DNA of 64,000 nucleotides from an uncultured Lentisphaerales bacterium. GTDB taxonomy: Bacteria > Verrucomicrobiota > Lentisphaeria > JABSQK01 > UBA12247. This document shows, piece by piece, positions 18,964 to 34,921 of the stretch. The stretch spans positions 21,521 through 85,520 of the forward strand of contig CALSSJ010000013.1 in assembly GCA_943788985.1 (NCBI GenBank). The letters run 5' to 3'. Both the position numbers and the translations under genes were made by a program. Every line of letters begins with the position of its first letter. The first letter of the stretch is position 1. The notes under the pieces are model-generated. The model searched no databases. It saw only the letters and a program-made list of their open reading frames with translations, and was not told where the DNA came from.

Positions 18964-19121
18964 GGAGCAAAAGAGCCGCAGCCCTACGGGAAGGGGCGGC
19001 GAACGGCCATCTGCGACGTTGCCTGTCGCACACCTCGCTAAGGGTACGCGCCGCTCCACACGCCTGGCATCTAACCATCCGGCGCTCCCGCCAAAATGTA
19101 GCGTCAATTCCGCATGGGCCC
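18964..19121 (+). mobile_element. Truncated copy of the MITE at 34336-34610 (opposite orientation)
   Basis: About 160 bp colinear with the reverse complement of 34336-34500; terminal 30 bp matches the left TIR at 26/30 and ends in GGGCCC. Confidence 0.7.
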
Positions 19122-31698: not shown

Positions 31699-31886
31699 TC
31701 CAACCACCCTTCATCGATTCAATTCCTGCGCGGTCAATCAGCGTCATCCAGTCTTCGCCGAACGCATGGTGCTCCTGCTTGGCAAGCAAGCTAAGGGCCC
31801 GCGCGGGAATACCTTCACATCTTGCTTCTGAGCATTTTGGCTTCTTTGCCCCGTTTGATTCAGTGCCCAGACCAGACAACGGGGGC

Positions 31887-31914
31887 TTGCAGATCTGGGG
31901 GGGGGGGGTATACT
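31887..31914 (+). promoter_or_regulatory. sigma70-like promoter with G12 homopolymer in the spacer
   Basis: TTGCAG (31887-31892), 16-nt spacer ATCT+G12, TATACT (31909-31914); about 90 nt upstream of ATG 32005. Confidence 0.6.
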
Positions 31915-32004
31915 CATTCCTGAATAATTGCATAAGCCCGGCTGTGTCGCTGGGCGGATATCAGAATGCGATTACCCCACTTTTTTATCTTAGGGAATGT
32001 CCAC

Positions 32005-33813
32005 ATGAAGACTCCAACACAAGTGGCGTTGTTGTGCCTTGCCGCGAGCCTGTACGTGACAACTGTCGCAAACGCGGGCACGGCCAATTACCGAAACACG
32101 GTGTTGGGGGATAGCCCCCTCGTCTATTACGAGTTTGATGAGACCAGCGGCACCACTGCGACCAATAGCGGGACCCTGGGCGCTACGCATCACGGCACCA
32201 TCGTCAGCACTGTGGCGCTCAACCAGGCGAGCTTTGCCAAGGGCGGCACTGCCTATGACTTCGGTGGTGGCTGGGTCGCGGCGGCGGCAGCGGCCTCTTC
32301 GTTAACCGAATGGACGGTGGAAGCGTGGATCAACTGGGACTCGACGAAGACCACCAGGTCCCACATTTTCGGCAACGACCAAAGCGGCTGGAACGATGAT
32401 GTTCTGCTTGGAATCGGTGTTGAAGTCGGGGGGCAAGGTGTCCCAGCCAGTAATGTCGGCTGCATTCAACAGGGCAGCCCGGGCAGCACTCGCGACTTTG
32501 TGACAGAGCCCCTGGCTCACAGTGAGTGGCACCATGTTGTCGCTACCGGCAGTACCACTGCTGGCGAACTCAAGCTGTACGTCGATGGCGTGCTCGTGGA
32601 TACGGACAGTTCGCTCGCCAACGGGGTGACATTGAACGGAACGGGTGGCATCGGCTCGCCCTCTGTTTTTGTGGGGAAAGATGGTTACGCCAATCGCACA
32701 TTCGACGGACTGATTGACGAATTTGCGCTCTACGACACGGTGCTCGACGCCACGAGGGTGGAGGCGCACTATGTGGCGGGCCAAACGGAGGTGTTGCTGG
32801 TCGATATCGACATCAACGGCACCACGTCGGGCACCGTCCTGAACCAATCGGGCACCGACACGATCGTCATCGATGCGAGCAACAGTGGCGACAAGCGGAT
32901 GACCGTCAATGGATCGCACCTGACGCAGACGCGTGGCGTGGCCATCGCCGTGCCGACGGCGTTGGGGATCTCCCTACCACGGCAGGTGATCAATGTCACC
33001 GGCGAACTGACCAATCCGGGGACATCCGGTTTCCCCGGTATCTGGTTCGCGACAAACGACATCTCCGGCGGCGGCGCTGAAGCGAACTACGATTTCGCTG
33101 TGGCGCATTTTCCATTTTCTGGCGGCTGGATCGCTGGCACGGTGGATCAGGACGGCACCGTCCTGGCGGGCAACACGACGGACGTCACAATCACCAAGCG
33201 ATCCGGGGCCGGCGTCACCAGCGGCAACTACTCGCTCGACATCGCCGGCGTGAATCCTTCGACCGACGGCTACCTGTTCACCATTGGGGCGCAGAATGAA
33301 ACCAGCGGCAACTACGCGCCGACTCGCATTCAGCCGGACAATTCCGGGTGGGACATCACCATCAGCGATCAGGGCGGCGACGCCAATGACGGAACCAACG
33401 GCGAGAACGACGACTGGAGTTTCGTCTACATTCCTGAGAACGCTCGTAACCTGATCGCCGGGCGCATTGACGACGATGCGACCGTGTTGGACAGCGTCGG
33501 CAGCTTCAGCGTCGCGTCGCAGCCCACCACCGGCGAGTATCTCTTGACGATCCCGGACGGGGTGGGCGGGTTCCTGGGCAAAGACGACGGCGTCCTGCTG
33601 CTCAACGTGACCAAGGACGGGGCGCCTGCCTTCGATGGCGCCGATGACAACTTCCTGCTTCAGGCGTACAGCAGTGCGGACGAGGGCTTCATCGTCTCGT
33701 CGCACGATCTTGCGGCAGCCAGCGACCAGACCACCGAGTGGTCGTTCGCTTTCCTGCAGTTCGACTCGCCGGCGCGCATTCCCGTGCCGGGCGCTGTCAT
33801 CCTATTGTACTAA
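32005..33813 (+). CDS. Secreted LamG-like jellyroll protein with C-terminal PVPGAVILLY motif
   Basis: Signal peptide ..VANA, YYEFDE, WTVEAWI, WHHVVAT, KLYVDG, FDGLIDEFALYD. Confidence 0.85.
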   Translation: MKTPTQVALLCLAASLYVTTVANAGTANYRNTVLGDSPLVYYEFDETSGTTATNSGTLGATHHGTIVSTVALNQASFAKGGTAYDFGGGWVAAAAAASSLTEWTVEAWINWDSTKTTRSHIFGNDQSGWNDDVLLGIGVEVGGQGVPASNVGCIQQGSPGSTRDFVTEPLAHSEWHHVVATGSTTAGELKLYVDGVLVDTDSSLANGVTLNGTGGIGSPSVFVGKDGYANRTFDGLIDEFALYDTVLDATRVEAHYVAGQTEVLLVDIDINGTTSGTVLNQSGTDTIVIDASNSGDKRMTVNGSHLTQTRGVAIAVPTALGISLPRQVINVTGELTNPGTSGFPGIWFATNDISGGGAEANYDFAVAHFPFSGGWIAGTVDQDGTVLAGNTTDVTITKRSGAGVTSGNYSLDIAGVNPSTDGYLFTIGAQNETSGNYAPTRIQPDNSGWDITISDQGGDANDGTNGENDDWSFVYIPENARNLIAGRIDDDATVLDSVGSFSVASQPTTGEYLLTIPDGVGGFLGKDDGVLLLNVTKDGAPAFDGADDNFLLQAYSSADEGFIVSSHDLAAASDQTTEWSFAFLQFDSPARIPVPGAVILLY

Positions 33814-33831: not shown

Positions 33832-34921
33832 ATGGCGCATATCGACGGTAGGACATTGCGAAAGCGATTTACTCTGATCGAATTATTGGTCGTGATCGTC
33901 ATCATCGCCATACTGGTGTCCCTGCTGCTCCCGGCGCTGTCGCGCGCCAGGTACACAGCTCGGCTGGCCGCCTGCACTAGTGAGCTCCATCAATGGGGTA
34001 TTGGCCTCACTGCGTGGGCAGGGGAGCACGACAGTTATCTGCCCGAACGCTCTGTTTACTCGAACGGCAATCGGCAGCCACATTTGCTGAAGTCGGGTGG
34101 AGCCGATGATCGACAGCTTTTCGACGACGTGCTCGGGCTCCCGCGTACAAACTGTACGTTTGTTGGCGAGCCCCCTTATGACATCGCTACAGTGGGAGGC
34201 CCGTATGTGCTTTCAAGCTATGAATTTTGAGCGGGCGCGGAAATCGACCATAGGCAACCCGCCTCGAGCATGTTGCGCATTGGCGACACCATGAATTGGA
34301 CTTCATGCAGCACGAACTATGAGTTTGACATCTTAGGGCCCACGCGGAAATAACGTTACATTTTGGCGGGAGCGCCGGATGGTCATATGCAAGGCGCGTG
34401 GAGCGATGCGTACCCGTAGGTACGTATGCGACACGCAACGCCGCAGATGGCTGTCCGCCGCCCCGCCCCGCAGGGCAGGGCTGCGACTGTTTTGCCCCCT
34501 GGCGGCGTTGCCTCGCTCGAGATATACCTACAGGTATACCCGCTCGCTCGCGCCTTGCCAGGAACCAAAACAGCCAGCAGCAAAATGTAACGTAATATCC
34601 GCGCGGGCCCTTAGTGGCAGACATGGACCGCACACGTCTGGCGTCCAGTAACTCGGTGATGTCTTCGCATCCACAGACAGTGCTGGGTTGCTCCCTTTGC
34701 AGTTGATAGCCCCCGGATACAAGATCTATACCTACTTCTCATCGGGCGGAGTGCGCGGAACGGTGGATCGGAACTTCCTTCACTCTGACGGCTCAGTCAG
34801 TCGTATGACAAAGGTTCTCGCTCCTACGCCTACCAACTGGGATTCACGGCTCGTACGCGTTCCCTATCAATCGAACAGGCCTGCCGATTCGCCTTCCGGC
34901 TATCTGCCGACGGCTGACTGA
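33832..34921 (+). pseudogene. Prepilin-type N-terminal cleavage/methylation (FTLIELL) protein, disrupted
   Basis: [29 protein letters not shown]; TGA at 34228-34230, MITE at 34336-34610, frameshift near 34673, and C-terminal RNFLHSDGSV in ORF 34688-34921. Confidence 0.85.
34336..34610. mobile_element. 275-bp MITE, 30-bp TIRs, TTA target-site duplication
   Basis: TIRs GGGCCCACGCGGAAATAACGTTACATTTTG and GGGCCCGCGCGGATATTACGTTACATTTTG (27/30); TTA at 34333-34335 and 34611-34613; removal restores EFDILVADMDR in frame. Confidence 0.88.

Follow-up and report, generated by a model that had tools for sequence, protein, structure and literature searches.

A non-autonomous transposon best assigned to the ISAzo13 family, inserted in a predicted prepilin-type pseudogene of an uncultured Lentisphaerales bacterium

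Insertion sequences (IS) of the ISAzo13 family and the eukaryotic Zator transposons both produce 3-bp target site duplications (TSDs) (PMC10045372; see also PMC5718144). Since a 3-bp TSD is also a hallmark of ISAzo13 and Zator, duplication of TWA does not by itself discriminate IS5/Harbinger elements from ISAzo13 elements; in bacteria it can equally be the mark of ISAzo13, the prokaryotic relative of Zator (PMC10045372). No PVC taxa are mentioned in a 2024 review of prokaryotic miniature inverted-repeat elements (MITEs), and in the searchable literature, whose coverage is not exhaustive, no paper was found in which ISAzo13 is named and a MITE is traced to it. The element reported here lies in a window of 64,000 nucleotides (G000:C13:21521-85520), the whole stretch of DNA analysed, in the genome of an uncultured Lentisphaerales bacterium (G000; 4.58 Mb in 48 contigs, 83.6% complete). 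It is an element of an ordinary kind, from a new family and a new host group.

The MITE spans 275 bp of the window (34336-34610, + strand) between direct copies of TTA at 34333-34335 and 34611-34613 (both +), the left copy being also the Leu codon of the host sequence ...EFDIL. The junctions read C-TTA/GGGCCCACGCGGAAATAACGTTACATTTTG...CAAAATGTAACGTAATATCCGCGCGGGCCC/TTA-G, and the codons around the insertion are GAG TTT GAC ATC TTA/GGGCCCACGCGGAAATAACGTTACATTTTG...CAAAATGTAACGTAATATCCGCGCGGGCCC/TTA GTG GCA GAC. The left terminal inverted repeat (TIR; 34336-34365, +; GGGCCCACGCGGAAATAACGTTACATTTTG) is homologous to the ends of ISAzo13-family IS, and the right TIR (34581-34610, - strand), whose reverse complement is GGGCCCGCGCGGATATTACGTTACATTTTG, is complementary to it at 27 of 30 positions. 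The only ORFs that overlap the 275 bp are short and attributable to chance, none of them with a protein family, so that the element has no coding capacity. The initial annotation of this DNA had given exact boundaries with a TTA duplication and 27/30 TIRs, and had seen no transposase within the window; all of this agrees with our reading of the sequence. Its designation as a MITE also holds, as the element is non-coding, has TIRs and a 3-bp TWA duplication and occurs in multiple copies. Taken together, the length below about 600 bp, the TIRs, a TSD of fixed length that differs between copies, the dispersed copies and the empty site in homologues are the generic marks of a MITE, and the 275-bp element is a genuine non-autonomous transposon.

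The insertion point was described earlier as lying in a pilin-like gene, and the 5' piece of the interrupted gene (33832-34230, +) indeed contains a prepilin-type N-terminal cleavage/methylation domain (TIGR02532, 19.1 bits against a cut-off of 16.3; PF07963 scored below its own cut-off). This piece ends at an in-frame TGA (34228-34230). Beyond the TGA, the same frame continues as far as the insertion site (34231-34335, +; ...NYEFDIL) and is truncated five codons inside the MITE, where frame 1 reads EFDIL and then GPTRK followed by a stop. After the MITE it resumes (34614-34709, +; VADMDRTRLASSNSVMSSHPQTV...) and stops at about 34704 from a frameshift near 34690, which separates '...SSHPQTV' from the 3' piece (34688-34921, +; 'RGTVDRNFLHSDGSV...YLP'). 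The 3' piece, in the shifted frame (...RGTVDRNFLHSDGSVSRM...YLPTAD), is colinear with the C-termini of intact homologues.

Removal of the MITE and one TTA in silico yields EFDIL-VADMDR, the restored frame that had been claimed for excision. More than 30 paralogous ORFs in the same genome share the prepilin-type N-terminus and diverge afterwards; they align over the N-terminal ~70 aa only and are useless as empty sites. Such expansion of prepilin-type paralogues is known from PVC bacteria. The flanks were joined in silico and relatives were searched with the non-N-terminal part. Uninterrupted homologues of 257-270 aa were found in four genomes (G009, G028, G025, and G006), aligning in one frame over query residues 4-204 with 28-38% identity. 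Their 'YEFDVLLADLDR...SSHPD' matches the host 'YEFDIL/VADMDR...SSHPQ' residue for residue, and the homologue sequence 'EFDVLLADLDR' aligns with the host 'EFDIL/VADMDR'. The homologues in all four genomes lack the 275 bp, and removal of the MITE with one TTA restores colinearity with them exactly. The insertion point thus falls in the conserved motif 'F-D-(I/V)-L-(L/V)-A-D' of a prepilin-type gene of about 260 aa.

The view that the insertion alone inactivated the gene does not stand, because the TGA and the frameshift, lesions separate from the MITE, are also present. Where the host has the TGA, the homologues have Trp or Tyr. An independently assembled metagenome contig of the locus (L145; identity of 99.84% over 3.7 kb) carries the MITE, the TGA and the frameshift alike, and so offers no empty allele from the same species. 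Because of the TGA and the frameshift besides the MITE, the host gene is a decaying pseudogene, and the MITE is one of at least three lesions. The same contig lacks one A at window position 34058, a 1-bp deletion inside the pilin-like pseudogene that is consistent with relaxed constraint.

Other copies with matching TIRs and a 3-bp duplication exist, as the MITE designation would lead one to expect. BLAST and an nhmmer profile identified about 22 related loci in the genome, mostly decayed. The copies are 75-92% identical, and in the majority truncation or an internal deletion has occurred. The genome has one further full-length copy (C12:167978-168250), about 75% identical to the first, and the copies at C25, C5, C12:83012, and C23 are 80-92% identical and truncated at one end. 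Both ends survive in three deletion derivatives, of 185 bp (C1:21938-22122), about 156 bp (C12:216046-216200), and about 83 bp (C5:37688). The 185-bp derivative lies in a different sequence context and has its own direct 3-bp duplication, TAA (genome + strand). The window itself holds a truncated copy at 18964-19121 on the - strand (G000:C13:40484-40641; some 158 bp from the left half, with 82% identity), with a CCAA flank and its inner end lost. Several solo family ends also remain in the genome. One of them, ctaa/GGGCCCGCGCGGGAATACCTTCACATCTTG..., is at 31795-31845 on the + strand of the window (G000:C13:53315-53365), about 60-90 nt upstream of a run of 12 G (31897-31908) and of a gene for a 615-aa secreted protein (31966-33813). 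This solo end could be part of the upstream region of that gene.

Searched over distances up to 4 kb, the genome has no TIR pair wider than 320 bp, and the solo TIR matches lead to unrelated DNA or remnants, with no partner. A separate observation concerns contig C27, where a segment of about 3.3 kb is present in two copies (57256 and 60622) with identical 20-bp left flanks. A TIR-like end, ctag/GGGGCCGCGCGGAAATAGATTC.CATTTTC, opens each copy, and the small gene after it has a product beginning MSVITLRGLSPDLVESLKAEARREQ..., which, judged by eye, we take to resemble a ribbon-helix-helix antitoxin. The duplicated segment contains this antitoxin-like gene and no transposase. The MITE family in this genome is old and probably immobile, because its copies are 75-92% identical and mostly truncated or deleted, no ISAzo13 transposase gene was found in the assembly, and the host gene is decaying.

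The family extends beyond this genome. Of 351 genomes from the same GTDB class, 9 contained the TIR pattern. In five of these the hits ranged from 16 to 97 (16 in G000, 97 in G009, 16 in G068, 75 in G071, and 56 in G075). Four further genomes had 1-2 hits each. A reversed control pattern gave 0 hits in the 9 genomes and at most 1 in any other of the 351. With about 22 loci in G000 and TIR matches far above the reversed control, the family is not a product of chance. Related MITEs of 156-316 bp were found in four other Lentisphaeria MAGs, in one Kiritimatiellae MAG and in metagenome contigs. Complete elements fall into size classes of 156, 180, 227, 266-275, and 314-316 bp and have common ends (GGGNNNRCGCGGAAATAACNTNACATTTT), and the TIRs are conserved in all family members.

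TWA lies on both flanks of 16 complete elements; 13 of them show a direct repeat of 3 bp (TTA..TTA or TAA..TAA), and 3 have TTA on one flank and TAA on the other. In the MAG with the most hits (G009), one related element (GGGTCCGCGCGGAAATAACTTCACATTTTGAGAGACTTTCAAGAGTCG) interrupts the assembly, with at least 44 distinct contig ends terminating about 50 bp into it. The flanks of these ends (n = 44) are TAA in 25, TTA in 17, and CAA in 2, nearly always preceded by C. The 13 direct repeats and the 44 flanks indicate that the target is C-TWA-G with a 3-bp duplication. In this uncultured Lentisphaerales MAG the repeated element is a major cause of fragmentation, as at contig ends L036-L041, and its interior, which is missing from the MAG, may be the autonomous IS and is the foremost candidate for such a partner.

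Scans of public data with the TIR pattern gave 54 loci in genome contigs, 32 in metagenome contigs, and 0 in viral contigs. All paired ends in these contigs were at most 320 bp apart, with no full-size partner. ORFs downstream of the examined unpaired ends were host genes or a putative tyrosine-recombinase trio, again with no partner. The trio was seen at 96-2700 of a metagenome contig (L131, Ga0307990_1027232), where a family end precedes three consecutive ORFs (327, 321, and 188+ aa). Judged by eye, these resemble tyrosine recombinases and are reminiscent of a 'recombinase in trio' element inserted in a MITE or beside it.

Full-size elements with related ends were found elsewhere. A 1289-bp IS (G220:C536) with inverted ends GTAATCGCGCAGAAATAACTTGACAT... 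is flanked by TTA/TTA and encodes a 401-aa protein that matches PF07592 (DDE_Tnp_ISAZ013) over its full length (471.8 bits) and NF033519 with 573.7 bits. Five further clusters of ISAzo13 transposases (60-83% identity; PF07592 assignment precomputed) belong to elements of about 1.28-1.30 kb, with the terminal sequences GCAATCGCGCAAAAATAACTTGACAT (P0003), GGAACCGCGCAGAAATAACTTGA (P0013 and P0015), GGATGCGTGCCAAAATAAATTGAC (P0030, Competibacteraceae), and GGGATTGCGCAGAAATAACTTGACCAT (P0006). The end motif GG..YGCGCxRAAATAACTTxAC is common to the 1289-bp IS and the five cluster lineages. When the first 29 nt are compared with the MITE TIR consensus, the 1289-bp IS is identical at 20-22/29 positions, and P0003, P0013, and P0015 are identical at 19-20/29. 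All five cluster elements lie in a C-TTA/TAA-G context, with a direct TTA or TAA duplication wherever both flanks look like one insertion. Several contigs with ISAzo13 IS have mismatched flanks, and these may be chimeric assemblies.

Based on the homology of its TIRs to elements that encode ISAzo13 transposases, the same C-TWA-G target and the 3-bp TSD, the MITE appears best assigned to the ISAzo13 family, and not to IS5/Harbinger. This link rests on TIR identity of about 70% and a common target rule, not on an identical partner, and no full-size element with the exact GGGNCC terminus (GGGNCCGCGCGGAAATAAC termini) was recovered. PF07592 had 0 matches in G000 (83.6% complete), G068, and G071, the last two being rich in copies. 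MAG assemblies tend to lose multicopy IS. ISAzo13 IS are present in G075 (L189, a copy) and G009 (L191, a fragment) with no related TIR, and a partial ISAzo13 copy in G014 (L190) showed only a degenerate 17-nt match with three mismatches.

The initial annotation had called the element Tourist/Harbinger-like with relatives in IS5, which would make it a Tourist-like MITE moved by a transposase of the IS5 family or the PIF/Harbinger type. In its 3-bp TWA duplication and G-rich termini it does resemble PIF/Harbinger-Tourist elements, and remnants of the IS5 family may have escaped a search that covered PF13359 and not PF01609. However, PF13359 (DDE_Tnp_4) is absent from both G000 and G009, the most heavily loaded relative, and the wide spacing of ends that an autonomous copy would give does not occur in G000. 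Moreover, the full-size elements found to combine these ends with this target all encode ISAzo13-family transposases. We therefore regard mobilisation by an IS5-family or Harbinger-type enzyme as very improbable.

The duplicated bases also bear on a second alternative, in which the MITE is a Stowaway-like derivative of IS630/Tc1-mariner that duplicates TA, the third flanking base belonging to the element or reflecting target preference. The three MITEs with TTA and TAA on their two flanks are as a TA duplication would give, and the transposase of the 1289-bp IS has a weak match to NF033545 IS630 (58.7 bits, under the cut-off of 100), suggesting that the two families are distantly related. The direct 3-bp repeats of the other 13 elements, in contrast, are impossible to obtain from a TA duplication beside GGG/CCC termini, and the window copy itself reads TTA/GGG...CCC/TTA. 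The same transposase scores 574 bits on ISAzo13 against 59 on IS630. An origin from IS630/Tc1-mariner is the least credible of the readings considered.

We consider it probable that the MITE is a non-autonomous cut-and-paste element whose TIRs are the sites of an ISAzo13-family DDE transposase acting in trans. In such a scheme, the 28-30-bp TIRs would be both the binding and the cleavage sites of the transposase supplied in trans. A 3-nt staggered cut would be made at TWA, usually in a C-TWA-G context, and its repair would duplicate TTA or TAA. By this route the MITE would have landed in the prepilin-type (type II secretion/type IV pilin-like) gene. Both the mobilisation by an ISAzo13 transposase and the cut-and-paste chemistry are steps that we infer.

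The interior of the MITE is highly structured. As single-stranded DNA, the window copy folds with -85.8 kcal/mol, compared with -56.3 +/- 3.6 for shuffled sequences (z = -8.2). The two inner inverted boxes that had been proposed are present, with 10/10 matches between 34389-34398 and 34549-34558, 10/10 between 34435-34444 and 34502-34511, and 11/12 between 34411-34422 and 34525-34536. The nested cruciform proposed together with them fared less well. Pairing of box to box is the minimum free energy fold of the window copy, and across the family the long-range helices of this fold reach only 70-81% pairing, against 88-98% for a fold of two hairpins, so that the nested arrangement was rejected. 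The two-hairpin fold is the RNAalifold consensus of an alignment of 11 long family members (266-316 bp, from five sources), and consists of a TIR stem and two separate long hairpins, each with a small cap hairpin. In the left long hairpin (34365-34467), 34365-34389 pairs with 34444-34467, and the covarying cap is 34406-34414/34419-34427; its helix 2 shows 97.7% pairing and 4 compensatory pairs, and helix 4 contributes 3 more. In the right one (34480-34581), 34480-34511 pairs with 34546-34581, and the covarying cap is 34519-34527/34534-34541; in helices 6-10 pairing is 88-98%, and 12 pairs are compensatory.

Over the whole consensus structure, 95.5% of cells form standard pairs. Compensatory double changes support 21 pairs, compared with 10.0 +/- 1.9 in 500 shuffles (none of which reached 21) and at most 8 in slid controls. 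Examples in the cap hairpins are ATACC/GGTAT, ATATC/GATAT, and ACACC/GGTGT. Selection on a DNA or RNA structure could account for the covariation, as could templated repair within palindromes. Since the forward and reverse alignments fold about equally (-112 and -104 kcal/mol, with 94 and 68 G-U cells, respectively), no claim is made for an RNA strand. At the centre of the MITE (34469-34494) there is a weak terminator-like hairpin with a T-run (CGCAGGGCAGGGCTGCG ACTGTTTTGC), and this terminator-like region (CCCCG.AGGGCTGCG.CCCTTTTGC) is conserved across the family.

A conserved structure of this kind raises the question of whether the repeat is kept for a host function, such as RNA stability or termination, a protein-binding site, or a recombination hotspot. 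The high proportion of paired cells, the excess of compensatory pairs, the z-score of the window copy and the central terminator-like hairpin would all suit such a role. On the other hand, the window copy lies inside a coding sequence and destroys it, the copies in G000 decay by truncation and deletion, and the distribution is patchy, with bursts in few genomes. An Rfam scan of 34200-34750 at E <= 1 gave no match. The near-equal folding of both strands fits DNA palindromy rather than a strand-specific RNA, and compensatory changes in palindromes can also arise from templated repair without selection. A host function for the repeat, which would place it closer to REP/BIME, ERIC or exapted Correia elements than to a parasitic MITE, is thus improbable. 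Returning to the ISAzo13-derived MITE, the element could be the founding example of a structured superfamily in Lentisphaeria and Kiritimatiellae, whose three-way interior architecture is maintained by selection, a proposal that we offer tentatively and think doubtful. If it were true, the hairpins might be needed for transposition (binding of the transposase or of host factors, or single-strand intermediates), or might act as an RNA or DNA structural element.

For the biology of the organism the insertion is of minor importance, as it affects one decayed surface-protein paralogue among at least 30. The elements of the family matter in other ways. They break MAG assemblies, as at the 44 or more contig ends of one Lentisphaerales MAG, and they turn genes into pseudogenes, each then annotated by gene callers as several ORFs. 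What remains of most interest is the covarying hairpin core common to elements of several PVC genomes, which offers a starting point for finding what the interior of a MITE needs for mobilisation.

Compared with known systems, the MITE is most similar to the ISAzo13 IS (PF07592, NF033519), with which it shares the terminal motif, the C-TWA-G target and the 3-bp TWA duplication (PMC10045372). Unlike these IS, it has no transposase gene and measures 275 bp against about 1.29 kb; the similarity is confined to the termini of about 29 bp, and the interior is unrelated. Zator, the eukaryotic counterpart of ISAzo13, has a transposase of a related lineage and 3-bp TSDs (PMC5718144; PMC10045372), and the MITE is likened to it through the literature alone. 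The 3-bp TWA duplication, the short TIRs and the small size are shared with PIF/Harbinger-Tourist MITEs and IS5 elements, which differ in belonging to another transposase superfamily; no DDE_Tnp_4 accompanies the MITE, and the autonomous relatives of its TIRs encode ISAzo13 transposases. The Correia elements of Neisseria, the enterobacterial ERIC and the pneumococcal RUP, compared here by description and not by sequence, resemble the MITE in several respects: they measure 100-300 bp, have TIRs, short AT-rich duplications and an extensive capacity to form hairpins, occur as many decayed copies and often lack an autonomous partner (PMC10969869). The present family differs from all three in its Lentisphaeria/PVC hosts and in a TSD of TWA rather than TA.
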